From a virus (taxonomy: Duplodnaviria; Heunggongvirae; Uroviricota; Caudoviricetes), in the IMG/VR virus record IMGVR_UViG_3300021387_000529, positions 90,811 through 154,810 of that record: a stretch of DNA of 64,000 nt. The stretch is one strand, 5' to 3'. A program made the position numbers and the translations under genes. Positions 23,375-59,384 of the stretch are shown one piece after another. The notes below the pieces were generated by a model. The model saw nothing but the letters and a program-made list of their open reading frames with translations, had not been told where the DNA came from and made no database searches. How positions within the stretch are numbered: the stretch's first letter is position 1; each line of letters begins with the position of its first letter.

Positions 23375-24078
23375 TGGCAACACTTAAAACTGACATTTTG
23401 AACAAATATATCAATGCTAAGAATGAAGCAAAACAAATGCAGAATTTATATCTTTTGCAAATATCTTCTGTTAAATGTTTAGCTCGTTATCAAAATCAAA
23501 GCCTCGAAACTCAGAAAGAATTCAAGCAATTTGAAGATTGCAAAACTGATGAAGAAGCTATTAAACGATGGGATGAAACAACTCCTCATACGCGTCGACT
23601 TCGTAGCATGAAAGCTGAGTCATGTCGTAAAGCCAAATATGCTGCTCGTGATGCTCAGAGAAAAATGGCGAAAGCATATGAAGAGCTCACTCATTATTAT
23701 GAAAAACGCCCAGTTTGGTTTGTAGCATCTGTTCGTGACCATGATGAGATTGTCCCAAAAATTGAAGGCAAAGAAGAGCTTGCAGGAACTGTTTATCACA
23801 ATCATGATAGCAGATGTTGGGGTTTCTTCTATGACCTTGAAACTGCAATGGAAGCAATCCGCAACAATGTGACTGATTTAAATGAAGCTGGTTACTATGC
23901 TTATGCCGTGATTGAGCCAAAGGAACAAGGTTTGTGTTGTGTTGAGCCTTCATGCCTTAACAGATGGTTTAAGGCAAAATATGGCACAGACAAAGATGGC
24001 AATAAAATATGCACAGGCTATGTTGACTGTGAAGAGCCTGAATGGGCAAAACAAATTGTAGGATGGACAATATCATGA
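23374..24078 (+). CDS. Hypothetical protein
   Basis: 234 aa, TAATG coupling. Confidence 0.7.
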   Translation: MATLKTDILNKYINAKNEAKQMQNLYLLQISSVKCLARYQNQSLETQKEFKQFEDCKTDEEAIKRWDETTPHTRRLRSMKAESCRKAKYAARDAQRKMAKAYEELTHYYEKRPVWFVASVRDHDEIVPKIEGKEELAGTVYHNHDSRCWGFFYDLETAMEAIRNNVTDLNEAGYYAYAVIEPKEQGLCCVEPSCLNRWFKAKYGTDKDGNKICTGYVDCEEPEWAKQIVGWTIS

Positions 24079-43810: not shown

Positions 43811-44911
43811 ATGGAACAGGAAGAAGACAAGACAGAAATCAGTGTAGAGATTTTAATGCGTCTTCAAGTTATTAGAACTAAACCAACAAAAGACCAGATT
43901 TTAATTAAATGTCTGAATGAAGCACATAATGACCATCATGCTTCAATGTCAGTGTCACTTAAAAAAGGCGTTTGCTATTGTTTCACATGTGGTTATTCAA
44001 AACCACTTACATCAATCTATTATGAGAGAACTGGAACATCTATATACAAAGACCTTGGAATGAATAGGCCAACGCACCAGCTTGGTTTTACTCGTAGGCA
44101 TAAACCAGACTACATCACTTATGAGCAATTACCTTCAACAGACTTCACTTTCAAAGGACAATTGCATCCTGTTCGCAATTCAGAATATGCTATAAATTGG
44201 GCCAAATCTCGTGGCTTTACACCTGAATTTTGTGAATTGAATGGCATCAAATTTACATCAAACAGCTTGACATATCAGACTTCTGACCCGAATAACAAAA
44301 AAGAAATGTCGTTCTTCTATAATTGTGTCATTATTCCAGTTTTCGAGAAGAACAGGTTGATTTCTTTTGAAGCTCGTGATACACTTGGAAAAGAAGCTTG
44401 GAAGCAAAGAATGCTCGCAGCTAAAAAAGACGTTGATGAAAAAGAATACAAAAAAGTATTATATCCAAAACATACGTCTATCAACACACTTTTCCAATAT
44501 GAGAAATTGGACACAGATAAAACCTTATACATTACAGAAGGTTTAATGGATATGTTTTCATTGCGAACTAATCCAGCTTTTAAGAATAGCTCGTGCATGT
44601 TCCATTGTAATCCAACACAACGTCAAGTTTACTTGTTGAAGAAGTTTAAGGAAATTGTTTACATCGTAGATAATGATGTTCCAGGATGGCGAGCATGTTT
44701 GAAGTTGATGGATGCTATTCCAGGTAAGGTTAAGTTTTTACGGCCACCAGAAAGAAAAGGAATAAAAGACATCAATGACATTCTTCAAGGAAAAGACCCA
44801 TATATTAAGTCTGTTGATGACCTCATCAAGATGGGTTGGATGAAAAAGATTTCAGATGATAAAAGCGTTCTCAATCTTTTAATTGAAGAAAAAACAAAAG
44901 AATTGAAATAA
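43811..44911 (+). CDS. DNA primase (Zn finger + TOPRIM)
   Basis: C..H.D..ASM..CYCFTCG; ITEGLMD; VDND; KDIND. Confidence 0.85.
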   Translation: MEQEEDKTEISVEILMRLQVIRTKPTKDQILIKCLNEAHNDHHASMSVSLKKGVCYCFTCGYSKPLTSIYYERTGTSIYKDLGMNRPTHQLGFTRRHKPDYITYEQLPSTDFTFKGQLHPVRNSEYAINWAKSRGFTPEFCELNGIKFTSNSLTYQTSDPNNKKEMSFFYNCVIIPVFEKNRLISFEARDTLGKEAWKQRMLAAKKDVDEKEYKKVLYPKHTSINTLFQYEKLDTDKTLYITEGLMDMFSLRTNPAFKNSSCMFHCNPTQRQVYLLKKFKEIVYIVDNDVPGWRACLKLMDAIPGKVKFLRPPERKGIKDINDILQGKDPYIKSVDDLIKMGWMKKISDDKSVLNLLIEEKTKELK

Positions 44912-44914
44912 TTT

Positions 44915-44953
44915 TTGAATATTTTAAAAATTTTTCATATATTATAAACGTAA
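44915..44953 (+). promoter_or_regulatory. Repeated sigma70-type phage promoter
   Basis: TTGAAT-N17-TATATT...CGTAA. Confidence 0.8.
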
Positions 44954-44978
44954 CAAACAATCAAACAGCGAGGTTACG

Positions 44979-47343: not shown

Positions 47344-47349
47344 TTATAG

Positions 47350-47480
47350 ATTGCTAATGCAGTTACTGAGAGTTCCTTCGTGAAATGGTAAACACATTAG
47401 ACTGAAAATCTGACGCCTTTTAGGCTTGTGGGTTCGACTCCCACAGGAAATAAAAACCTCTTGGTGTTTTTCTTAGCAAT
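47350..47480 (+). ncRNA. Y-RNA-like handle RNA 1 (tRNA-Phe(GAA)-like cargo)
   Basis: ATTGCTAA/TTAGCAAT, TGCAG, ACTGAGAG/CTCTTGGT, TTCCTTC; internal D, anticodon and T arms. Confidence 0.7.
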
Positions 47481-47486
47481 TTTTAT

Positions 47487-47560
47487 GCTACCTTAGCTCT
47501 TAACGGTAGAGCACATGACTTGTAATCTTGGGGTTGTGGGTTCGAATCCCTCAGGTAGCT
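47487..47560 (+). tRNA. tRNA-Thr(TGT)
   Basis: Cloverleaf. Confidence 0.9.
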
Positions 47561-47743
47561 TACAAAGAGTTAACATGCACTCTTCAAAAAAAGCTGCGGT
47601 GACTCCATACCGAAATATGGTTGGCGCATCCCAAAGTGCACTATGCGTCATAAAACGGGCGGTTAGTGAAGCAGAAACCGTATAAAAATAGCTATTCTGC
47701 TTTTCGTAGGGTTTTGCATGCTTAAAAATCTTACAACTTTCAT

Positions 47744-47817
47744 GGGGCTATGGTGGAGTTGGTTACCACGCCTGCCTGTCACGCAGGAGGTCGCGAGTTC
47801 GATTCTCGCTAGTCCCG
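47744..47817 (+). tRNA. tRNA-Asp(GTC)
   Basis: Cloverleaf. Confidence 0.92.
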
Positions 47818-47820
47818 AAT

Positions 47821-47954
47821 AAAAACCAAAAGCAGTTGCAAAGAGTTACTTCGCAAATCGGTAATGCATTTCACTGTTAATGAAAAATTGGCTGGTTCAA
47901 CTCCAGCAGTAAAAGCCTTAAATGGTTACCTCTTTGTTCTATTCTTTGGTTTTT
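47821..47954 (+). ncRNA. Y-RNA-like handle RNA 2 (tRNA-Asn(GTT)-like cargo)
   Basis: AAAAACCAAA/TTTGGTTTTT, AGCAG, GCAAAGAG/CTCTTTGT, TTACTTC. Confidence 0.7.
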
Positions 47955-47958
47955 TCTT

Positions 47959-48031
47959 TGGGCCGTCGTCAAGTGGTAAGACCCGGGAATTTGGATCCCG
48001 TATTCCGCAGGTTCGAATCCTGCCGGCCCAG
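47959..48031 (+). tRNA. tRNA-Gln(TTG)
   Basis: Cloverleaf, U1-A72. Confidence 0.9.
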
Positions 48032-48036
48032 CTATT

Positions 48037-48283
48037 AAAAAGTGGCACAGGAAAACGTCCTGTGTTAACACGATAGGCAGTGAGGTTAAGAAATAAGCCT
48101 TCTTAGGAGTTCAAGCGAAACTGCAGTCACTTGTTCAACCGACCTTGCTGTAGGACCCCGATGAGTTGCAAATCTAGGGGATAAGGTACACCCTGTTATT
48201 AGAAGTGAGCTTACGTAGCAAGAGTCTTCTCGAAAGCGTGATAGTGCGTGGCCACGCTGAAGAAACATCATGTGTCACTTTTT
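48037..48283 (+). ncRNA. Candidate ~245-nt structured ncRNA
   Basis: Ends pair: AAAAAGTGGCACA/TGTGTCACTTTTT. Confidence 0.45.
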
Positions 48284-48288
48284 ATTAT

Positions 48289-48360
48289 GGCCGCCTCGTC
48301 TAGTGGTTAGGACGCGAGGTTTTCATCCTTGTAACAGCAGTTCGATTCTGCTGGTGGCTA
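48289..48360 (+). tRNA. tRNA-Glu(TTC)
   Basis: Cloverleaf. Confidence 0.9.
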
Positions 48361-48366
48361 AAATAT

Positions 48367-48463
48367 AAAATGTTTTAATGCAGTGTTAAACGGTTACTTC
48401 TACTTTTCTTTTCAGGAAAAATATAGGATATACCAACCGTTTTCGTTTTTCTTAAAACATTTT
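48367..48463 (+). ncRNA. Y-RNA-like handle RNA 3 (minimal cargo)
   Basis: AAAATGTTTTAA/TTAAAACATTTT, TGCAG, AAACGG/CCGTTT, TTACTTC. Confidence 0.65.
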
Positions 48464-48469
48464 TTATAT

Positions 48470-48541
48470 GGTTCCGTCGGCTAACGGTTAGGCCATCTGG
48501 TTTTCATCCAGAGAACGAGTGTTCGACTCACTTCGGAACTA
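48470..48541 (+). tRNA. tRNA-Glu(TTC)
   Basis: Cloverleaf. Confidence 0.88.
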
Positions 48542-48728
48542 ACGCGCTCACCTGAACTTAGCACTAGGACGGTGAGAATAGTTGGTTATAGCTAAGTAAC
48601 GCGAACTATAGGTTGCAAAGTAAGCAGAGGTGAACGCCAAGCCAAATGCTCATGATGAATACCTGCTATAAGCTCGAAGGATGCTGCGGCAAGCCAGTGT
48701 TTAAGCTCGAAAGTTCATCAACTTTTTT

Positions 48729-48800
48729 CGGAATGTGGGCCAAAGGTTGGTCGCTAGTTTTGGGAACTAGATTATGATAGTTCGAGTCTATTCATTCCGA
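48729..48800 (+). tRNA. tRNA-Pro(TGG)
   Basis: Cloverleaf, CGG start. Confidence 0.82.
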
Positions 48801-48932
48801 CTTTGAAATCCGCAGTTGTTTATCCATGGTAAGGGCAGCTGAAAACTATATCAAGCTTTTAGTATTGGAGCGAAAGTTTGGCTAGAATGTCTTTGATATA
48901 GAGGTTAAGTATGGTCTTAGCCAACCCTATTT

Positions 48933-49016
48933 GGGATGTTATACCGTAAGTGGTAGCGGGGCAGACTGTAAATCTGTTGCCTTCGGGCTCGGGGAGTTCG
49001 ACTCTCTCACATCCCA
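48933..49016 (+). tRNA. tRNA-Tyr(GTA)
   Basis: Cloverleaf with long variable arm. Confidence 0.88.
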
Positions 49017-49019
49017 TCA

Positions 49020-49214
49020 CAGTTTCTTCATAGAGTACGGCGGCGTCAAGCATAGGCGCCCTAAGGTATCAACCAAATGCATGGCCGGAGAACGGAGCTT
49101 CGTGAGACAGCACATTTGCAAAATCGTACCTTTTATAAGCTGTCAGGTGCTTCATTGGAAGAAAGGACTGAGATTAAACGATAACTCAGCTCGGGGCCGT
49201 TGACGAAGAAACTG
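49020..49214 (+). ncRNA. Candidate ~195-nt structured ncRNA
   Basis: CAGTTTCTTC/GAAGAAACTG and ACGGC/GCCGT close the element. Confidence 0.45.
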
Positions 49215-49221
49215 CTTTTAT

Positions 49222-49306
49222 GCTACAGTCGCATAGCGGTTGATTGCGCCGGATTTGTAATCCGGAGGTGTAAAAGCCCACGGGGGTTCGAATCCCTCCT
49301 GTAGCT
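49222..49306 (+). tRNA. tRNA-Thr(TGT) with unusual long variable arm
   Basis: Cloverleaf; variable region AGGTGTAAAAGCCCAC. Confidence 0.85.
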
Positions 49307-49439
49307 TCGAGACGTAACACGATGGTGAGTAAGCGTTAGTCATGTGTTAAAACCATCAAAAATGGTTATGTTAAAGAGAAGTTTAGCAAAATCGTTAAGT
49401 GACCTCAATTTTCACGTGGTCGATTAGCATAACTTTTAT

Positions 49440-49513
49440 GGCCTATTAGCTCTAATGGTCAGAGCGGATCCCCGTTAAGGATACGGTTGCAGGTTCGAGT
49501 CCTGCATAGGCCG
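49440..49513 (+). tRNA. tRNA-Asn(GTT), C33 variant
   Basis: Cloverleaf; loop CCGTTAA. Confidence 0.85.
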
Positions 49514-49528
49514 CATACAATGTTTTAT

Positions 49529-49601
49529 GGGATGTTAGCTCTAGCGGTAGAGCGGAGGACTGTTAATCCTTAGGTCGCAGGTTCGAACCCTGCACATCCC
49601 G
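49529..49601 (+). tRNA. tRNA-Asn(GTT)
   Basis: Cloverleaf. Confidence 0.92.
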
Positions 49602-49732
49602 TCTTTTACCAACCTTCTTCTATGTTGGTTGGTCGGTGCTTAAACTACGATTACCGAAAGGTTAGAGTCCCACCACAAAGCCATGTTGGTTGTTGAGTTC
49701 ACGGCTATAAAATGCAACTCAACTTCTGTTTT

Positions 49733-49807
49733 GGTGCTGTAGTTCATCTGGATCAGAACAAATGACTTCTAATCATTAGGTAGGGGGTTCAAGTCCCTCC
49801 AGCATCA
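49733..49807 (+). tRNA. tRNA-Arg(TCT)
   Basis: Cloverleaf. Confidence 0.9.
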
Positions 49808-49835
49808 AAAAAAAATAAAAATATTTCAAAATTTT

Positions 49836-49874
49836 TTGAATATTTTTGAATTTCTTCATATATTATAATCGTAA
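49836..49874 (+). promoter_or_regulatory. Repeated sigma70-type phage promoter driving a non-coding region
   Basis: TTGAAT-N17-TATATT...CGTAA. Confidence 0.8.
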
Positions 49875-49876
49875 AT

Positions 49877-50410
49877 CAGCTGCTGATAACGATAAGCTGC
49901 TCGGTTAAATAAGTGAGGGAAAATATGACGTAGGTACGGTGAGTTATTCAACGCAAATAAGTCGTAACGGTGAGATGCTGAAAAGCTCACATCGGTAACA
50001 AAGAGACCATGATGAAATGGTTGGCCGGATTGGTTCACAATAAGGAAGTGTGGTTCACTTCACGAAAATGAGACCGAATCAATTAAAAGTTCTTCACTCT
50101 AAGCTTGAGCCGAAAGGTAGAAATAGCTACGAGAAAGGTTTTTGAAGAACTTCCAGCTGGTAGTAACAGCTGACTGTAAAGACAGAATTACGAACCATGT
50201 AGAAAATGTTGGATCCGTGAAGCTCACAAAGCTGGAGTAACGGCAAGGTTCAAGTCCTTGTTCTACATTGAGATGGGTTCTATACAGTGTCCCACCTGAA
50301 ATGACAAAAGACTGGAGTAACCCCTAGCTATGGGAAGGTTAAACTGGACCTGCAAATAGCAAAAAGGCATACGGGTAATTCCTTTCCCACTGGGTTCCTT
50401 ATACCTACAA
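49877..50410 (+). ncRNA. Candidate large (~530 nt) structured ncRNA with embedded tRNA-like module
   Basis: Own promoter, no ORF, long-range stems, T-arm/acceptor module at 50197-50268. Confidence 0.55.
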
Positions 50411-50417
50411 TTTTTTT

Positions 50418-50502
50418 GGGTTTGTCCGCTAATTGGCAAAGCCTGCAGTTAAAGCCTACAATGGAGAGCTGCAGAATGTGAGTTCGAGTCTCATCAAATC
50501 CA
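50418..50502 (+). ncRNA. tRNA-like RNA with ~20-nt anticodon loop
   Basis: Acceptor GGGTTTG/CAAATCC, D loop, T arm, CTGCAG stem with enlarged loop. Confidence 0.65.
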
Positions 50503-50700
50503 CTATTACAAAGTTCTGAGAGGCATCTTAGAAAATACTTTGTGAGAAACGATTCTTCATAAAAAGGTGAGATAACAGCCAGTAGGTGAATAATAATCAC
50601 CATCTCGTTGAGCGCCTGGCATACGAAACCGAAGAGTAAGGACGAAGGCCAAGACCTGAAACGGAGAACGAATAGACCCGAGGGTACGGGGTCTCTAAAG

Positions 50701-50900
50701 CGATGAGCTACCGAGTGTAAATGCGTAAAAAGAGAGTAGAGCTTGTAACTCGAAATCTGGGATATGGGAAAGTCCTCGCTGGAAGAAACAAACTGAAGCG
50801 GAAGTTGCTAGCCAAAAGTAAGTTTGCAGAAATCGGGAATACTAGGGTCCACCACGGTGGAAACATGGTTATGCTGAAGGTTCGACTCCTTCTCCATCGA
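50701..50900 (+). ncRNA. tRNA-like RNA with large internal insertion (tentative)
   Basis: T arm GAAGGTTCGACTCCTTC; CGATG/CATCG acceptor-like closure. Confidence 0.4.
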
Positions 50901-51021
50901 CTTCTGGGTGTTGATACTTGTGAGCTCGCGGGGTTCCTTTCACAAGTGTAGCCTGCCCCGCAAATATGAAGGACTGGGACTATTCGCGATTGTTCTGGTC
51001 TGGGGGAAACGCGTTCCCCAC

Positions 51022-51181
51022 TGCAGTGTAGTGTAAACGGTGCACAGGAGCTGCTAGTAAGTGACAATAGGGCCTGACAATAGTCTACGACCTGCTTTGA
51101 GCAGATGACGGGACGACGATAGGGCCTGACGATAACCGAACCACAGCTCCAGGAGCGAGGTTCAAATCCTTGTTACTGCAA
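51022..51181 (+). ncRNA. tRNA scaffold with ~90-nt insert in the anticodon loop carrying a duplicated motif
   Basis: TGCAGTG/TACTGCA, D arm, GGAGCTG/CAGCTCC, T arm. Confidence 0.7.
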
Positions 51182-51184
51182 TAA

Positions 51185-51364
51185 AAAAGCTACAAAGCAG
51201 AATGAGACAGTTACTTCAAAATCATGCTTTGGGTGCCGTGTGTTGTAGGTTCGAGTCCTACCAGCTCTCTATAAAGCCTATTAAGGTGTGAGAGATGTAG
51301 CTCAATGGTAGAGCAACGTAAAAAATTTCGAAACTATACTGTTTCGCTTATTCTTGTAGCTTTT
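51185..51364 (+). ncRNA. YrlA-like Y RNA (handle RNA 4, permuted T-acceptor-D module)
   Basis: Handle motif plus T arm GTAGGTTCGAGTCCTAC upstream of D arm GCTCAATGGTAGAGC. Confidence 0.8.
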
Positions 51365-51370
51365 GTTTTT

Positions 51371-51443
51371 GGGATATTGGTAAAATGGTGCATACGCCTG
51401 ACTGTCACTCAGGAGAGCGCGAGTTCAATTCTCGCATATCCCG
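51371..51443 (+). tRNA. tRNA-Asp(GTC)
   Basis: Cloverleaf. Confidence 0.88.
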
Positions 51444-51677
51444 TACGTTAAAGTTCCAGACCAATCACACGCAAAATCCAGAACTGAAACTGAGACGTAA
51501 AAAACGGTTGTAAAACAAGCATGTTAACCAGAGTTGGCCGTAATAATCAAACTCGAGCATGTGCTACCACGACAGGTTACGGTGATATTTGTGTGGTTCC
51601 GACGGAAAGTGCAGGTTGCAAATAATGAACCTGTCCCTGCACTTAGCTTTTTACTTTGAAAAACGGAGGCAAAACTT

Positions 51678-52175
51678 ATGAAAAATAAACCTTCTAAGTT
51701 TTATGTCTATTGGATAGAGTTCAAAATGAAAGATGGTTCTATTAAGAACAACACTTTCATATATGACTTCAAAAATAAACGTGTCGTAATTGACACTAAA
51801 AAAACAATTGGTAAGTTCTTCTATTTTGGAGACTGGGCAAACCTTTTAACTGGTAAACCACGACCAAATGTAACTTACAGAGGAAAGTTTGCACGCAGAA
51901 ATGCTAAAACATATGCTGAGTACATCCAGTATGAGTTGGAATATGATGCAAAGGGATTTCAGCAAAAAGTTGATGCTGGTCTGAAAGCAATTCCAGATGC
52001 TGTATCAGCTAAAGTACGGTTTGGCCGTGCAAATTCAAAATGTGTTCCATTCAAAAGTGATGTTCGAGAAATCGACCGTTACAGAATGAACAAAAAGACT
52101 AGGATTGGTTTTTGTAGCAATATATTGCGAGAAATTCCAAATCGTAGCCAAGTAACTTCGGCGCTATATAGTTAA
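51678..52175 (+). CDS. Basic hypothetical protein inside the RNA island
   Basis: GGAGG RBS, 165 aa. Confidence 0.7.
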   Translation: MKNKPSKFYVYWIEFKMKDGSIKNNTFIYDFKNKRVVIDTKKTIGKFFYFGDWANLLTGKPRPNVTYRGKFARRNAKTYAEYIQYELEYDAKGFQQKVDAGLKAIPDAVSAKVRFGRANSKCVPFKSDVREIDRYRMNKKTRIGFCSNILREIPNRSQVTSALYS

Positions 52176-52195
52176 TCTATATAACATATATTTTT

Positions 52196-52728
52196 GCCCT
52201 TCGCCATTTAGGGCCCCCAGAGAGTTGCGCAACTCGTTTGAATGGGAGTCTGGCGTATCCAAGCGGTGAATGGAGGGTGAATGTGCGTGTATTTTCGGAG
52301 ACGCCTTCACTTAGTAGTTCACTGGCAGAATGTCGAAATCGAGGTGATTATCATCCGAATGAATCCCTCATGCGCTTCTTGGAAAAAGGTTAAACCAGTA
52401 CAGTGCGGGTCATGCCGTGGAAGGGCGCTACTGCAATTATAAGTCTTACGGAATGAAGAGTTGGTAACTCTCGTAATCCTGCGCAAGCGTGTAAAAAGCG
52501 CCCCGAGATTCAGGTGAGAAACGGAAAAACTTCCAATGTAAGAGAGTGAGAGTGGTTACAACCTAGACTACACACTCAAGTAAGTTGCTGCTTATCAAGA
52601 TGAAAGTTAATATCTTGTTGGGAATTTGCAATCCTGTAAAAAGACTGGAGTATGAGGTCATTCCGAAAGAAACAGACAACGATGCACGTGAAACAACTGC
52701 GTAGCTAACACGTAAAATAAGACTGCGT
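52196..52728 (+). ncRNA. Candidate large structured ncRNA(s), two closed domains
   Basis: GCCCTTC/GAAGGGC; AGTCTTA/TAAGACT; CGGAATGA/TCATTCCG. Confidence 0.5.
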
Positions 52729-52732
52729 GCCA

Positions 52733-52806
52733 CGGGCAATAGACCAGTTGGTTAAGCCGCTTCGCCTGGGACGAAGAGATCGGGGGTTCGAATCCCTCTT
52801 GCCCGA
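52733..52806 (+). tRNA. tRNA-Pro(TGG), C33 variant
   Basis: Cloverleaf; loop CCTGGGA. Confidence 0.85.
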
Positions 52807-52878
52807 AAATCGAGAGAGTCGACTATCTCGAGAGTAGACTACATGTTTATTGTGTACAGGTATCATGCAGTTGAATAA

Positions 52879-52950
52879 TGGACTATAGTTTAGCTGGAAG
52901 AATGCTGGCCCTTAGTGCTGGAGGCGTAAGTTCGGATCTTACTAGTCCAT
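52879..52950 (+). tRNA. Atypical tRNA with TTA anticodon (pseudo-tRNA or ochre suppressor)
   Basis: TGGACTA/TAGTCCA; loop CCTTAGT; T loop TTCGGAT. Confidence 0.55.
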
Positions 52951-53001
52951 CTATATGGAGGAAATGCTTATGACTTATCATTAGGATAGGAGATTATCCA
53001 A

Positions 53002-53280
53002 ATGAGTAATAGTTATACAGAGTCCGCATTTTATCGTGAAAACATTCGTTACAGAAATCGTGGAACACGGAAAGGTAAAATTTTCAATCGTGTTTGGACA
53101 CGATACATGAAGCGAGCAGTTGTTTCGACTAACAATTGGTTGATTAACCAGAAAAAGTCGTATAGACGTCAAGAATTGAAAAGAATTGACATCAATTCTG
53201 ACGACGAATTGATTGAGGTAATCGAGGCCAATATTGCTGACACTTACAAAGATGTTGCACAATGGTATTGGTTCGATTAA
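53002..53280 (+). CDS. Hypothetical protein
   Basis: AGGAG RBS. Confidence 0.65.
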   Translation: MSNSYTESAFYRENIRYRNRGTRKGKIFNRVWTRYMKRAVVSTNNWLINQKKSYRRQELKRIDINSDDELIEVIEANIADTYKDVAQWYWFD

Positions 53281-53338
53281 TATAATTGTTGATTGGGCCT
53301 CTTGAACAGCTTTCGAAAGAGAGACAAGAGGTCATTAT

Positions 53339-53468
53339 AAAAAGCTTTATCAACGTTGGTTCGATTCCAACCGACTTCTCATCCGTGAGGGTACATGTAT
53401 GGCTTGCAGAAATTGAATGCAGGTAGAGGAGCCGTAGTTTAGTATGGCGAGAACCAGTAGAGTTTTTT
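53339..53468 (+). ncRNA. Second permuted tRNA mimic (YrlA-like topology, no handle motif)
   Basis: 12-bp closing stem; T arm GTTGGTTCGATTCCAAC precedes acceptor stem and D arm. Confidence 0.6.
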
Positions 53469-53473
53469 ATTAT

Positions 53474-53545
53474 GGTTCGTTAGAACAGTGGTTAGTTTGC
53501 AAGACTCTCAATCTTGAGACATGGGTTCGAATCCCTTACGAACTA
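53474..53545 (+). tRNA. tRNA-Glu(CTC)
   Basis: Cloverleaf. Confidence 0.85.
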
Positions 53546-53572
53546 GAAATCCATTTTTATACTAATTATTCT

Positions 53573-54190
53573 ATGGAAAGAATAAGGTATATTTATGAGA
53601 TTAAAAATTTGGTTAATGGAAAAACTTACATTGGCCAGCATACTTTGAGGGAAGGACGCACTTTTGAAACTGATGTTTATTATGGTTCTGGAGTTCTTAT
53701 AAATAGAGCTCAAAGAAAATACGGTTTAGAAAACTTTGAAAAAACGATTGTTATTTCAGGATTTTTTACTAAAGAGCAAATAAACCGTTTTGAAAGGTGC
53801 ATGATTAGGATTGAACGATTCTTAGGAAAAGCAGAATATAATATTGCTGACGGTGGTGAAGGTTGGAGTGAAGGCATGAGAGAAGCTCATAAAGCATCCA
53901 TGACACCAGAACACAATCAGAAAATATCAGAAGCCAATAAAGAGCGTTTAGCAAAAATGTCACCTGAAGAGCGTTCAAAAAAATGTTTTGGCGGTAAGCA
54001 TAATAGTTTTCTTGGACGTCATCATACAGATGAGTATAAAAAATACATGTCTGAACGAATGAAAGGAAATCTTATTGGTTCTAAGAACGGCTCTTTTGGA
54101 AAGAGATGGTGGACAAATGGAAAAGAAAATATAAAAGCTGAAGTTTGTCCTGAAGGTTTTAGGCCTGGAAGGACTTGTCGAACTAAATAA
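53573..54190 (+). CDS. GIY-YIG homing endonuclease with NUMOD3-like tail
   Basis: YIYEIKNLVNGKTYIGQH, YYGSG, YNIADGG, GRHHTDE; start moved to ATG 53573. Confidence 0.9.
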   Translation: MERIRYIYEIKNLVNGKTYIGQHTLREGRTFETDVYYGSGVLINRAQRKYGLENFEKTIVISGFFTKEQINRFERCMIRIERFLGKAEYNIADGGEGWSEGMREAHKASMTPEHNQKISEANKERLAKMSPEERSKKCFGGKHNSFLGRHHTDEYKKYMSERMKGNLIGSKNGSFGKRWWTNGKENIKAEVCPEGFRPGRTCRTK

Positions 54191-54196
54191 CTATAT

Positions 54197-54270
54197 AGGT
54201 GAGTGGCTACAATGGTACAGCAGCGGTCTCCAAAACCGCCATTTTGCAAGTTCGAGTCTTGCCTCGCCTA
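54197..54270 (+). tRNA. tRNA-Trp(CCA)
   Basis: Cloverleaf. Confidence 0.9.
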
Positions 54271-54278
54271 ATACACAT

Positions 54279-54355
54279 AGCAGGTTGAAGCACTGGTTGT
54301 GGCTTACGAGGCTCATAACCTCGACATCAGGGTGGTTCGATTCCACCACCTGCCA
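54279..54355 (+). tRNA. tRNA-Met(CAT), initiator-like
   Basis: Cloverleaf with 1:72 mismatch (A:C). Confidence 0.85.
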
Positions 54356-54356
54356 T

Positions 54357-54514
54357 AAAAACATAAAAAGCAGATGTTGCGGTTACTTCTATACAAATTA
54401 AGCAAATTTGGTCGCTCAATTAAAATAGGCTGACTGCGCATTATAATCGGGGCACAGAGCGCTGTGTGACTCAGCAAATCCCGTTTCCCGCGACGAGTAT
54501 TCTTTTATGTTTTT
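54357..54514 (+). ncRNA. Y-RNA-like handle RNA 5
   Basis: AAAAACATAAAA/TTTTATGTTTTT, AGCAG, GTTGCGG/CCGCGAC, TTACTTC, TATTC. Confidence 0.7.
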
Positions 54515-54520
54515 TCATAT

Positions 54521-54593
54521 TCTCCCGTAGCATAGTTGGTAGTGCATCGGACTCTGGATCCGTATCGGGTGCGTTCGAGTCGTACCGGGAGAA
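54521..54593 (+). tRNA. tRNA-Gln(CTG)
   Basis: Cloverleaf, U1-A72. Confidence 0.82.
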
Positions 54594-54782
54594 CTTAAAA
54601 GTAGATGCTGCGAAAGCGTGAAGTCAAGCGTTAGTAGTACCATAAAGCATAAAGTGAAATCTTTCAATGCGCTGAAATGCGAGGGTCTATTTTTCGAATA
54701 GAATAGGCTGCATTGGAGGAAAGTCTTCATGAATGACAAGTGGAGTCACAAGTTCTAGTTGGTTACTTGTCTAGAACACCAA

Positions 54783-54868
54783 CGGTCTGTGGTGCAACTG
54801 GCTGAGACACATCGCGCTTAGAACGCGACACATTAGAAACATTGAGAGTTCAAATCTCTCCGGGCCGA
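54783..54868 (+). tRNA. tRNA-Leu(TAG)
   Basis: Cloverleaf with long variable arm. Confidence 0.88.
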
Positions 54869-54891
54869 TTAATCTATAAATTATAAAATCC

Positions 54892-54980
54892 TACTTCTAA
54901 AAGCGGGATTAGCTGTTACTTCATTTTGAACTCATATCTCAAATAACAAGCTAAACAGCAATCAATTTTCTTTGGAGGTA
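54892..54980 (+). promoter_or_regulatory. Handle RNA 6 in the Ro60 leader, sequestering the Shine-Dalgarno sequence
   Basis: TACTTCTAAA pairs with TTTGGAGGTA; AGCGG, GCTG/CAGC, TTACTTC, TTTTC. Confidence 0.7.
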
Positions 54981-54986
54981 TTCTAT

Positions 54987-56648
54987 ATGTCAAGAATCTC
55001 AAAAGCTGCAAAAGCAGTTCGTGAGTCAGAGGTTTTGCGCTCTGACGAAATCGTTAAAAACTTCATGGGTGGCGACTCTTACAAGCTCGACCCACTTTCT
55101 ACACTTCGCGTCATCGCTGCATCTTCAATTTTTGGTGAAGCATCTTATTACAGAGACAACGTAAAAGACTCCAAAGTTGAGACAATAGACCTTGGTGCTC
55201 GTTTTGGCACAGACAGTGATGAACTCAACAAATGGCTCAAGTCTTTTAATGGCCAGTCAACTACAACTGTATTCACAAAAGCGATTGATGCTGCTTTGGA
55301 CTATGACTTCGAAGGAACTTTGAAGCTCGCAGTAGAACTTCGTAAGAACTACAATATGCGCCTCAATCCTCAGGTTATCATGGTTCGTGCATCAACAAAT
55401 GCAAAGCGTGCTGCTTTCACTGAGAAAAATCCAGGAAAATTCTTGGAGTATGAGTCACAGGTAATGTCACGCGCTGATGAGCCAATCACTCAGCTTGCCT
55501 ATTACATCGCAACTAACAAAGGCAAGAAAAAGATGCCAACAATCTTGAAGAAAGCGGTTGCTAAAAAGCTCAGCTCTCTTGATGCATTTGCAGTTAACAA
55601 ATATAAGAATGCTGAAATCGGTATGATTAACGCAGTTCGTTTGTCACACGCAAATTCTGCAGTTCTTGATGAGTTGATGAAAACTGGTTCAGTTAAAGTC
55701 GAGGAAAATTCTAAGACTTGGGAACAGTTGAAGTCTGAAGGAAAAACTTGGAAGGAAATCCTTTCAACAATCAAACTTGGACATATGGCACTTTTGCGCA
55801 ACCTTCGTAACATCTTCACAGAGATTGACGACACAGAACTTTGTAAAGAGGTTCTCGACCAGTTGAAGAAAGGCGTTGTTAAAGGCAAGCAGTTCCCATT
55901 CCGCTATTACAGCGCTTACAAGATGATTGAGCAGGCTGACAAGATGCATCACAGACCAATGGTTCTTGATGCTCTTGAAGAGTGTATCGACATCTCTATT
56001 GCAAATATGCCACACTTGAAAGGCAAAACAATGTGTTTGTCTGACAATTCAGGTTCTGCTTGGGGCACTGTTACAACTGAGTATGGTTCTGTACGTATTG
56101 CTGAGATTGACAACTTGTCATCAGTTATTACAGCTATGGCCTCAGATGAGGGATATGTCGGTAAGTTTGGTGACAAATTGATTGTAAAACCAGCATCAAA
56201 GAGAAATGGCGCACTTGCACAGACAAAAGAGCTTACACACAATAAATGTGATGATGTTGGTGGTGGAACTGAGGGTGGTATCTGGGAGTTCTTCAAGAAT
56301 GCTATCGACAACAAAGAGAAGTATGATAACATCATAATCTACAGTGATATGCAGGCTGGAACTGGTGGACTTTATGGTACAGATAAGCACATCTCAGAAT
56401 ATCGTAAACGTGGATATGACATCGGCTCACATGTAAATGTGTACAAACTTATCCAGGACTACCGTAAGAAAGTCAACCGTAAATGCAATGTAATGTGCGT
56501 ACAAACAGCAGGTTATGACAATATGGTTGTTCCACAGATGTCATATCGTACAGCACTTTGTACTGGTTGGACTGGAAAAGAAGCATCTTTCTTGGACGCT
56601 TATGCAAAAGAGTGGGATGCTGTTGAAAATAAGAACAACAAGCAGTAA
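54987..56648 (+). CDS. rsr: Ro60 / TROVE-domain RNA-binding protein with vWA domain
   Basis: ~553 aa; NFMGG.SY, LR..YNMRLNP, TWEQLKS, MALLRNLRN, QFPFRYYSAY, MIDAS DNSGS, IYSDMQ; start ATG 54987 after GGAGG. Confidence 0.92.
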   Translation: MSRISKAAKAVRESEVLRSDEIVKNFMGGDSYKLDPLSTLRVIAASSIFGEASYYRDNVKDSKVETIDLGARFGTDSDELNKWLKSFNGQSTTTVFTKAIDAALDYDFEGTLKLAVELRKNYNMRLNPQVIMVRASTNAKRAAFTEKNPGKFLEYESQVMSRADEPITQLAYYIATNKGKKKMPTILKKAVAKKLSSLDAFAVNKYKNAEIGMINAVRLSHANSAVLDELMKTGSVKVEENSKTWEQLKSEGKTWKEILSTIKLGHMALLRNLRNIFTEIDDTELCKEVLDQLKKGVVKGKQFPFRYYSAYKMIEQADKMHHRPMVLDALEECIDISIANMPHLKGKTMCLSDNSGSAWGTVTTEYGSVRIAEIDNLSSVITAMASDEGYVGKFGDKLIVKPASKRNGALAQTKELTHNKCDDVGGGTEGGIWEFFKNAIDNKEKYDNIIIYSDMQAGTGGLYGTDKHISEYRKRGYDIGSHVNVYKLIQDYRKKVNRKCNVMCVQTAGYDNMVVPQMSYRTALCTGWTGKEASFLDAYAKEWDAVENKNNKQ

Positions 56649-56815
56649 TTTACAATGGTGACAGTTTGCTACTGAGCAATGAGGCCATGCGTTACGGAAA
56701 TGGCCTCATAAAATTGCAAAAAGCTAAACTGCAGAGCATGCTATGGGAGTCGTAACCTCTCATTTCAGCCAACTGTTTAAGAGCGGTTTCACCTGCGTCA
56801 GGTTGGCAATTTTTT

Positions 56816-56897
56816 CGGTCAGTGGCGGAATTGGCATACGCATCTGATTTAAGCTCAGACGCCGTGAGGATTGAGAGTTCAAGTCTCTCCTGGCCGA
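56816..56897 (+). tRNA. tRNA-Leu(TAA)
   Basis: Cloverleaf with long variable arm. Confidence 0.9.
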
Positions 56898-56907
56898 CTA
56901 TATTCTT

Positions 56908-57183
56908 ATGATGAATGAAGAACTACTTAAAGACATTGTTGAAAGCAACTTAAGTGCAGATGCAAAAGTTGAGCTCATGAAGCTTCTTCTCAGAGATAAA
57001 GAAAAGATTGCTCAGCCTTATGAAGTAGTCTATCCTTATATTATTGAGAAAAGAATTACACCACAGGATTGGGACCCTTACAAAGTTACATGTGAAGAAA
57101 GCGGTGACTCTCTATGGTGGAAGCAACACATAGCAAATGCAGCTGCAGATTGTGTAACAAATAATCCTGTAGTCTATAACTAA
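56908..57183 (+). CDS. Hypothetical protein
   Basis: 91 aa ORF. Confidence 0.6.
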   Translation: MMNEELLKDIVESNLSADAKVELMKLLLRDKEKIAQPYEVVYPYIIEKRITPQDWDPYKVTCEESGDSLWWKQHIANAAADCVTNNPVVYN

Positions 57184-57192
57184 ATTTTTAAT

Positions 57193-57588
57193 GTGAGGCA
57201 CATGATGAAGACAAATGTTGCGCTATATAAATTTTTCTGCGCAATTGTGAAACATGGTTTTCTTCAATATTCTGAAGAAAACAGAAATGGCGAAACGCCT
57301 TGGATAATTCTATCTTCTCTTTTAGAAGAAGATGAGGTCGTCCGTTTCAGCAAAGAATACAGCGCAATTATTGACTTCGTTGACAAAAAACAATTTTTTA
57401 ATTTGCATAAAACATATTCACTTTCTGTACGGAATGCGGATTTAGATATTTTCTTCAAAGAACTGTTCGCATATTCGCGTCTTCATTGGAGAGCTGACAA
57501 ACCAATTCAGTTTTTCATATTTAAAGTGTTTATTTCTAAACTTTGGAAATTAAGAATGCGCCTTGCATTAAAAGTGAGGAAAGCATGA
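57193..57588 (+). CDS. Hypothetical protein
   Basis: 131 aa ORF; start may be a downstream ATG. Confidence 0.6.
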   Translation: MRHMMKTNVALYKFFCAIVKHGFLQYSEENRNGETPWIILSSLLEEDEVVRFSKEYSAIIDFVDKKQFFNLHKTYSLSVRNADLDIFFKELFAYSRLHWRADKPIQFFIFKVFISKLWKLRMRLALKVRKA

Positions 57589-59306: not shown

Positions 59307-59336
59307 AATGCCACCTTTTTGGTGGCATTTTTTTTT
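59307..59336 (+). terminator. Rho-independent terminator
   Basis: AATGCCACC-TTTTT-GGTGGCATT-T-run. Confidence 0.85.
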
Positions 59337-59373
59337 GAATTTTTCTGCCTTTCCTCATATATTATACATGTAA
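59335..59373 (+). promoter_or_regulatory. Repeated sigma70-type phage promoter
   Basis: TTGAAT-N17-TATATT...TGTAA. Confidence 0.8.
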
Positions 59374-59384
59374 AGAGGTAAACG

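Follow-up and report, generated by a model that had tools for sequence, protein, structure and literature searches.

Does the Ro60 protein of a gut phage control its own synthesis through a copy of the RNA that it normally binds? The locus that raises this question lies in a 64,000-nucleotide (nt) stretch of DNA, hereafter the window, which is C1:90811-154810 of a 300,878-bp IMG/VR virus record with direct terminal repeats; the runs that contain the phage sequence are bovine, sheep and other gut metagenomes. At 46-57 kb, the window holds a tRNA array (24 tRNA calls and a tmRNA, by ARAGORN and Rfam) whose end is an open reading frame (ORF) at 54987-56648. We identify the product of this ORF as a Ro60 homologue because it passes the Pfam TROVE cut-off (43.9 bits, cut-off 23), matches PDB chains 9l5y/9kop (E 1.2e-16, with only residues 112-377 covered) and carries an invariant DxSxS motif. 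The PDB entries are titled only 'TROVE domain-containing protein', and we take them to be phiRo60. D353, N354, S355, G356 and S357 are unchanged across 14 Ro relatives, and this motif, assigned by sequence alignment only, is the putative metal-ion-dependent adhesion site of a C-terminal vWA domain. We did not take the in-frame TTG at 54972 as the start codon, since relatives start at MS(R/K).

As far as sequence and fold can tell, the leader of this gene is a Y-RNA stem without cargo whose outer helix has the Ro ribosome-binding site as its 3' strand. We call such a stem, with its conserved internal loops, a handle, and the segment that it encloses its cargo. The leader and its surroundings are built as follows.

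54783-54868, + strand, tRNA-Leu(UAG), immediately 5' of the Ro leader (ARAGORN and Rfam tRNA, 43.9 bits)
54869-54891, + strand, A/T-rich spacer of 23 nt, holding the -10-box-like ATCTATAAA
54892-54901, + strand, 5' strand of the outer stem, TACTTCTAAA, the anti-Shine-Dalgarno strand
54902-54906, + strand, 5' internal-loop core AGCGG (family consensus [A/U]GC[A/G]G), at the site of the YrlA AUGC / GNCGAA region
54907-54915, + strand, 5' strand of the inner stem, GATTAGCTG, with A54911 bulged, pairing with 54956-54963
54916-54922, + strand, junction TTACTTC, invariant in the leader alignment and near-invariant in the family
54923-54955, + strand, short cargo of 33 nt with one small hairpin (UUUGA/UCAAA), hypervariable, no tRNA-like domain
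54956-54963, + strand, 3' strand of the inner stem, CAGCAATC
54964-54970, + strand, 3' internal-loop core AATTTTC (consensus (U/A)AU(A/U)(U/C)C), a variant shared with copies 1 and 3
54971-54980, + strand, 3' strand of the outer stem, TTTGGAGGTA, with GGAGG at 54974-54978
54987-56648, + strand, Ro60/TROVE gene, 553 amino acids (aa), with a TROVE domain and the vWA-type DxSxS motif D353-N-S-G-S357

The original prediction had an outer stem of 10 bp, two of its pairs G:U, burying a GGAGG 8 nt before ATG 54987, and both the sequence and the minimum free energy (MFE) fold bear it out. TACTTCTAAA pairs with TTTGGAGGTA in 10 contiguous pairs, two of them G:U (T54895-G54977 and T54898-G54974), so that the Shine-Dalgarno (SD) sequence at 54974-54978 lies within the 3' strand, 8 nt from the ATG at 54987-54989; the stem itself ends 6 nt before this codon. 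The MFE fold of 54869-55020 consists of the outer stem, the inner stem and the cargo hairpin (RNAfold, -27.6 kcal/mol, z -2.66). AGCGG, TTACTTC and TTTTC (54966-54970) also stand in the family positions, as had been claimed, and the UUAC of the junction is the counterpart of the YrlA YUAY (PMC4201824 Fig. 2). AAUCC (54887-54891) is able to pair with GGAUU (54906-54910), and this rival hairpin appears in the centroid and ensemble folds. Another inner pairing, TTAGCTTGTT/AACAAGCTAA, was ruled out by uncompensated differences in L002 and L009, two of the related loci (L numbers) introduced below. A ATCTATAAT-type motif also occurs 5' of the handle in L016 and of stand-alone handles in L018/L020; when 53300-57300 was scanned for sigma-70 promoters and terminators, promoter-like sites were fewer than in shuffles and none preceded the handle, so the -10-like ATCTATAAA is a by-eye observation only.

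What lifts the leader above chance is its membership of a family, not the stem alone: G:U-tolerant helices of at least 10 bp cover the SD in 10% of the 141 SD-bearing genes here, against 5.5% in shuffled controls. We scanned both strands of the whole genome with a descriptor of the handle (outer stem, WGCRG, spacer, TTMCTTC, T[A/C/T]TT[C/T] and outer stem 3' strand, with no inner stem required) and obtained exactly six elements, all on the + strand at 47345-54980 of the window, where Markov shuffles gave a mean of 0.2. The 10 bp of the leader's outer stem fall within the 6-14 bp of the handle family. A covariance model, R1 (87 positions), was built from 14 relatives with every leader copy excluded, and it matched 54892-54980 over model positions 1-87 of 87 at 33.9 bits (E 2.2e-5); the best match outside the family scored 19.4 bits. 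Leaders of two further lineages, B and C (see below), scored 34.6 and 41-46 bits. The descriptor scan and the leave-out model thus uphold the earlier claim that the Ro leader carries the same handle as five other RNAs, which are the following.

47345-47485, + strand, copy 1, cargo called tRNA-Phe, between tRNA-Leu and tRNA-Thr (R1 33.9 bits)
47821-47954, + strand, copy 2, cargo called tRNA-Asn, between tRNA-Asp and tRNA-Gln (R1 46 bits)
48367-48463, + strand, copy 3, short cargo, between two tRNA-Glu genes (R1 68 bits, in the model seed)
51185-51364, + strand, copy 4, permuted YrlA-type tRNA-like cargo, tRNA-Asp next (R1 52 bits)
54357-54514, + strand, copy 5, long cargo, between tRNA-Met and tRNA-Gln (from the descriptor scan)

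Copy 5 was absent from the cmsearch list of the genome at default filters. A tRNA follows each of these five copies within 1-6 nt and four of the five abut a called tRNA on the 5' side too, so ordinary tRNA processing would release them. After the sixth copy, the leader, no tRNA, U-run or terminator occurs before the ATG 6 nt on, and this copy would therefore stay joined to the Ro reading frame. At its other end, 3' processing of tRNA-Leu(UAG) would define the 5' end of a read-through Ro transcript. As for the cargos, those of copies 1 (47371-47452) and 2 (47844-47917) are tRNA-Phe(GAA) and tRNA-Asn(GUU) by ARAGORN and Rfam (48.4 and 44.5 bits); these modules have the shape of tRNAs, with their parts in normal order, and nest within a Y-RNA stem, unlike the permuted YrlA domain of copy 4, and the conserved UUACUUC provides their 5' acceptor strand. 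Outside the array, R1 also matched 23800-23878 weakly (16.8 bits, E 0.3), probably by chance; the 5' core there, AGCAGATGTTGGGGTTTCTTC, is similar to the one in handle 5.

The handle family is tied to Ro. R1 gave 55 matches in 23 sources, all on the Ro strand; in five complete or large phage records, including four whole ones of 134-295 kb, the matches lay only within 0.2-8 kb of Ro, and a phage record without Ro had zero. Another 59 matches, again all on the Ro strand, stood beside Ro on bacterial metagenome-assembled genome (MAG) contigs binned as Ruminococcus, Oscillospiraceae, Lachnospiraceae, Acetatifactor and others, and handle elements adjoin Ro in nearly every relative fetched. Across the 55 matches, 90.3% of paired cells were paired (56% in shuffles, 36-44% in slid controls) and 19 of 19 stem pairs changed on both sides, including all 8 inner pairs, in an alignment that was fitted to R1. 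The bins offer a hint of the hosts of the wider phage group: 80 Ro relatives of 50-61% identity (L226-L305) come mostly from Ruminococcus, Oscillospiraceae, Lachnospiraceae and Acetatifactor MAG contigs, with a few in Synergistaceae or Spirochaetes bins.

Because its architecture and motifs align with those of YrlA, we read the handle as a divergent Y-RNA stem. The Rfam YrlA model (RF02553) gives sub-threshold matches inside several handles (38-40 bits against a gathering score of 69; 38 bits for copy 4) and, in L011, covers the entire handle, aligning the YrlA outer stem, AUGC loop, second stem and CUA with the handle's outer stem, [A/U]GC[A/G]G loop, inner stem and UUA. Over the leader, 54892-54980, Rfam returned zero matches even at E up to 10, and the YrlA-type tRNA-like cargo found in copy 4 and in relatives does not occur there. 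In YrlA, a GNCGAAN0-1G motif near the 5' end is thought to contact Rsr, and YUAY precedes the tRNA-like domain (PMC4201824); Hu et al. used the CGAA motif to locate, upstream of a phage Ro gene, a pair of RNAs that bind Ro (PMC12135203). At this stem-loop junction, the relatives have CGAA or UGAA, as CGAAGCAG or UGAAGCAG. The six window copies read YAA[A/U]GC[A/G]G, that is UAAU, AAAA, CAAA or UAAA before GC[A/G]G, and the leader's UCUAAAAGCGG does not conform to the YrlA motif. The placement of the motif had earlier been taken to mark Ro as its ligand: the linkage and the YrlA-like stem speak for this, the lack of the canonical CGAA in the window speaks against it, and, by homology and linkage, Ro is the likely ligand of the handle family.

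How widely is the SD-in-stem layout conserved? Three lineages have it, namely A (the window, L002, L009, L181 and L185; Ro identity 100/97%), B (L016/L017; 77%) and C (L021, L022, L160 and L220; 68-69%), and in about 60 distinct handles the SD is inside the stem only before the Ro genes of these three; the handle of L023 (472-556) merely abuts the SD of a 166-aa ORF. In all three lineages a tRNA-Leu precedes the handle, in the same position in B and C (L016, L021, L022 and L220), and the stem ends 5-6 nt before the ATG. When eight leaders are aligned, seven of the outer pairs are invariant, two show one-sided changes that keep the pair (A-U to G-U and U-G to C-G, with U-to-C and A-to-G in the anti-SD strand) and one, terminal, is lost in C; the inner stem has two pairs with compensatory double-sided changes. 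The cargo behaves otherwise. In three lineage C genomes, the handle halves (30 nt 5' and 24 nt 3') are 100% identical at 96% identity of Ro DNA, while the cargos, of 21, 34 or 36 nt, cannot be aligned, nor can cargo be aligned between A, B and C; within lineage A (against L002 and L009), the only variable leader positions, 54951-54952, are in the cargo. Since the handle halves are kept while the cargo is scrambled, selection holds the handle and the SD pairing rather than the cargo.

In the Ro protein tree, A+B, L018/L020, L023 and C form one clade (support 98/98), and the layout sits on both sides of its first split; it is therefore ancestral with one or two losses, or was gained twice. L018-L020 (Ro identity 71-72%) have a stand-alone handle 225 nt upstream, with a -10-like box and a terminator-like hairpin. 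In L221-L223 a terminator-like hairpin follows the handle, in L024 the SD is 7 nt past the stem, and the leaders of L306, L004, L005, L007 and others lack a handle; L003-L014 are also without the layout. The original prediction had staked itself on the motif recurring upstream of homologous genes: the handle is indeed common upstream of related TROVE genes, the SD within it only in one subclade. Missing as it is from most Ro leaders, the layout is best described, from these comparisons, as a clade-specific and dispensable variant. In L018-L020, Ro stands beside a beta-CASP/RNase J-like metallo-beta-lactamase, an AstE/AspA-like protein and DUF1848, with a CCA-adding/poly(A) polymerase bearing an HD domain also near, an RNA-processing neighbourhood.

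Pattern searches were also made for the layout. A stricter pattern recovered, from viral contigs, only lineage A records already known and chance matches and, from metagenomes, more of lineages A and C (among them the new contig L160) and chance matches; scans of viral contigs seeded with peptides of the lineage B and C proteins found no further lineage. Two patterns were discarded: the loose GTTACTTC...TTC...GGAGG, which in viral contigs gave only chance matches among the matches listed, and GAAGCAG..GTTACTTC..ATTCTC, whose one match, due to chance, was in a record without Ro and without an R1 match.

What, then, would a Ro-type stem do on the ribosome site of Ro? We tentatively favour autogenous translational repression of Ro via the leader stem, which is quite possibly the most economical reading of such a fusion. 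Five trans Y-like RNAs with the same stem would be freed from the tRNA array by tRNA processing, and Ro left unoccupied by them would bind the stem in its own leader, clamp the marginal outer helix and so deny GGAGG to the 30S subunit. Once Ro is taken up by Y RNAs or damaged RNAs, the helix would breathe or refold and Ro would be translated. We infer each of these steps, namely the binding of Ro to the leader copy, the resulting repression and the competition by the other copies, and the circuit would be autogenous repression by mimicry of Ro's normal RNA partner. Two features expected of an operator of this kind are present: GGAGG lies inside the outer stem, hence the element overlaps the SD, and the element resembles the main RNA ligand of the protein through the family that it shares with the five trans RNAs, which Ro presumably binds.

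The stability of the outer helix bears on this circuit. With flanks included, the ensemble probability of the outer stem is 0.2-0.45 in A, about 0.15-0.2 in B and below 0.1 (down to 0.0) in C, compared with a median near 0.85 for the trans copies, whose duplex energies are similar to those of the leaders. In the folds, competing pairings arise from AAUCC/GGAUU in A and B, from CUGCUU/AAGCAG in C and from UUUGGA with a UCUAAA early in the coding sequence, at codons 2-3 in lineage B and 5-7 in C. In these models, the marginal outer helix would fit one that requires a ligand or protein to close.

Several observations weigh against autogenous repression. Ro binding and repression are predictions drawn from sequence, fold and linkage, and a stem over the SD is by itself unremarkable in this A/T-rich genome. 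Three lineages, of 68-100% Ro identity, keep the operator, and about 50 other Ro leaders are without it; L018-L020 and L023, nested in the same 98/98 clade, have a stand-alone handle with a terminator or none, and in L024, L221-223, L306 and 37 MAG loci the SD is outside the stem, at gaps of 18-484 nt. The outer stem is without double-sided covariation among the A, B and C leaders, because, we reason, the SD strand is fixed by its other job, and the canonical CGAA is missing from all six window copies. The low stem probability in lineages B and C, and the other partners of the SD in the folds, mean that the naked RNA may not hide the SD through the handle. Finally, an RNA 5' end at 54908 (see below), if real, would remove the anti-SD strand.

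Among the rival explanations, the one that survives best is that the leader is a sixth Y RNA gene, a short 'YrlB-like' hairpin that is last in the array, abuts Ro and acts in trans; SD overlap would then be a by-product of a compact genome, with at most constitutive damping of Ro translation. We consider this rather unlikely, despite its precedents. Handles with short cargo (75-97 nt) are common as stand-alone RNAs in relatives, copy 3 of the window being another, and in most relatives the handle is 18-330 nt before Ro with the SD outside; SD-covering helices are, besides, not rare in the phage genome. Bacterial Y RNAs also often lie just 5' of rsr, their precursors can be shared with other Y RNAs and tRNA, and each studied species has a short hairpin-type Y RNA as well (PMC4201824). 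However, nothing lies between the stem and the ATG (tRNA, U-run or terminator) to form the 3' end of such an RNA, and a cut there would strip the mRNA of its SD. Three lineages keep both the 5-6 nt spacing and the anti-SD complementarity but have scrambled cargo, which is the part that a Y RNA would use in trans, and any Ro binding here would, given the overlap, hardly avoid an effect on translation.

A second rival makes the leader a processing or stability element. A cut in the 5' loop, or 5' exonuclease trimming to the inner helix, would remove the anti-SD strand and leave a Ro mRNA whose 5' end is protected by a hairpin and whose SD is free, the stem having delayed translation until the tRNA/Y-RNA precursor was processed. 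The leader does sit in a long tRNA/Y-RNA array that needs processing, and the inner stem and cargo hairpin of the MFE fold form the nested helix expected at the 5' end of such an RNA. In addition, two studies each yielded a metatranscriptome contig (X11 record 6; X17 record 14) that begins, with no unaligned overhang, at 54908, one base into the inner stem; a third RNA contig starts at 54960. The shared start is a weak hint of an RNA end, and it may be a processing site, a reverse-transcription stop or an assembly break: metatranscriptome cover of the Ro gene is low, contigs, as opposed to reads, cannot show expression level, strand or reliable ends, a graph break or reverse-transcription stop would look identical in this comparison of RNA contigs only, and the cover gap over 54812-54907 is not evidence. 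No comparable break occurs at the five other copies, and one RNA contig (record 17) runs through copies 1-3. As this explanation also leaves unaccounted for the need for a Y-RNA stem with all its conserved loops, we judge it improbable.

Least plausible of all is a decayed, non-functional Y RNA without cargo whose SD adjacency has no consequence, for although the cargo is minimal and unconstrained, the R1 score, 33.9 bits, is among the lowest in a family that reaches 80, and the layout is lost in sister lineages, both stems and every conserved position of the family have stayed intact in three lineages across up to 32% Ro protein divergence, and the handle halves of lineage C are identical despite complete cargo turnover.

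The rest of the neighbourhood holds further elements of note. A Pfam scan of the nine ORFs around Ro gave no match naming another ligand for the handle, a weak GIY-YIG match being the only one above noise. ORF 53444-54190, with weak GIY-YIG SegE and NUMOD3 matches, overlaps the tRNA-Glu(CUC) call at 53473-53546 and is probably a homing-endonuclease gene whose real start lies after that tRNA. Within the array, a tRNA at 52879-52951 with anticodon UUA, which reads UAA, looks like a suppressor tRNA (ARAGORN 'tRNA-Stop'; Rfam tRNA, 47 bits). An ORF of about 165 aa without a Pfam match lies near Ro and handle arrays (window 51678-52175, L023 567-1067, L016 2-502 and L017 86-583); the window and L023 copies are 39% identical over 66 aa, and those of L016 and L017 are grouped with them by size and position only. 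Just 5' of this ORF, the window (about 51608-51665) and L017 (1-70) both conserve a GC-rich hairpin with a U-run behind it (GTGCAGG...CCTGTCCCTGCAC TTAGCTTTTT), which may act as a terminator or as a leader element. An A/T-rich repeat of 44 nt that ends in ...TTCATATATTATAA.CGTAA occurs three times (44911-44954, 49832-49875 and 59331-59374); it is promoter-like, and one copy is at the end of the first tRNA block.

To our knowledge, no account exists of how any organism matches its Ro60 level to the Y RNA level, and the literature that we searched did not describe Ro regulating itself or acting on its own mRNA, nor a Y RNA that overlaps the ribosome site of rsr. Autogenous repression, if true, would give the Ro/Y RNA system its first described case of autoregulation, and the leader would be a natural read-out of Ro occupancy; a leader that binds Ro would, in addition, define a minimal RNA for Ro binding, with about 55 conserved nt, useful for structural work. 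The gene layout alone points to a simple, testable circuit, for which three natural lineages with the same handle and different cargo are built-in controls. Beyond regulation, a large Y-RNA-like gene family stands beside Ro in rumen and gut phages and in Firmicutes-binned contigs, a family that the Rfam YrlA threshold misses (38-40 bits against 69) and that has a variant of the presumed Ro-binding motif.

Autogenous operators that mimic the ligand of their protein include the E. coli thrS operator, with its likeness to tRNA-Thr, and those of S8, S15, L1 and L20; others are the operators of T4 gp32 and RegA and the MS2 coat-protein hairpin. The Ro leader resembles them in placing a cognate RNA structure over the gene's own initiation region, where surplus protein would block the ribosome and the true ligand would compete. 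It differs in that it is a full paralogue of the stem of the ligand RNA, not a partial mimic, in that its binding and repression are predicted and in that the trait is confined to one subclade. Leader hairpins that sequester the SD, such as the fourU/ROSE RNA thermometers and anti-SD stems, are a second parallel. There too a U-rich strand pairs with the SD by A-U and G:U in a marginally stable helix, but the Ro helix closes a conserved two-stem RNA of protein-binding type, its partner strand is about 70 nt away rather than local, and there is no sign of temperature control in this gut phage leader. Hfq likewise belongs with the autogenous translational operators (PMC6348989).

The closest relatives remain the Y RNAs themselves. 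In Thermus phage phiLo, a phage Ro, phiRo60, has Y-like RNAs (Yrl1 and Yrl2) upstream in a non-coding region, in which a 5'-3' stem flanks a bulge (Hu et al. 2025, PMC12135203); unlike the window copies, they carry CGAA, are described as separate RNAs and have been shown to bind the protein, and the passages of that account on the Yrl RNAs mention no ribosome-binding-site overlap. With YrlA/YrlB, the handles share a stem, an asymmetric internal loop, a second stem, YUAY and a cargo (Chen et al. 2014, PMC4201824), as well as a gene that adjoins Ro on the same strand, production together with tRNAs and the coexistence of tRNA-like and short hairpin forms (PMC4201824). They depart from YrlA in scoring far below its gathering score, the leader having no Rfam match, in replacing GNCGAAN0-1G by YGA[A/U]GC[A/G]G in relatives and by the YAA form in this genome, and in having some cargos that are tRNAs in normal, non-permuted order. 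The leader copy goes one step further, with no tRNA-like domain and with the SD of the Ro gene in its stem, and a Y RNA stem that serves as an mRNA leader would be a variant on a known Y RNA theme.

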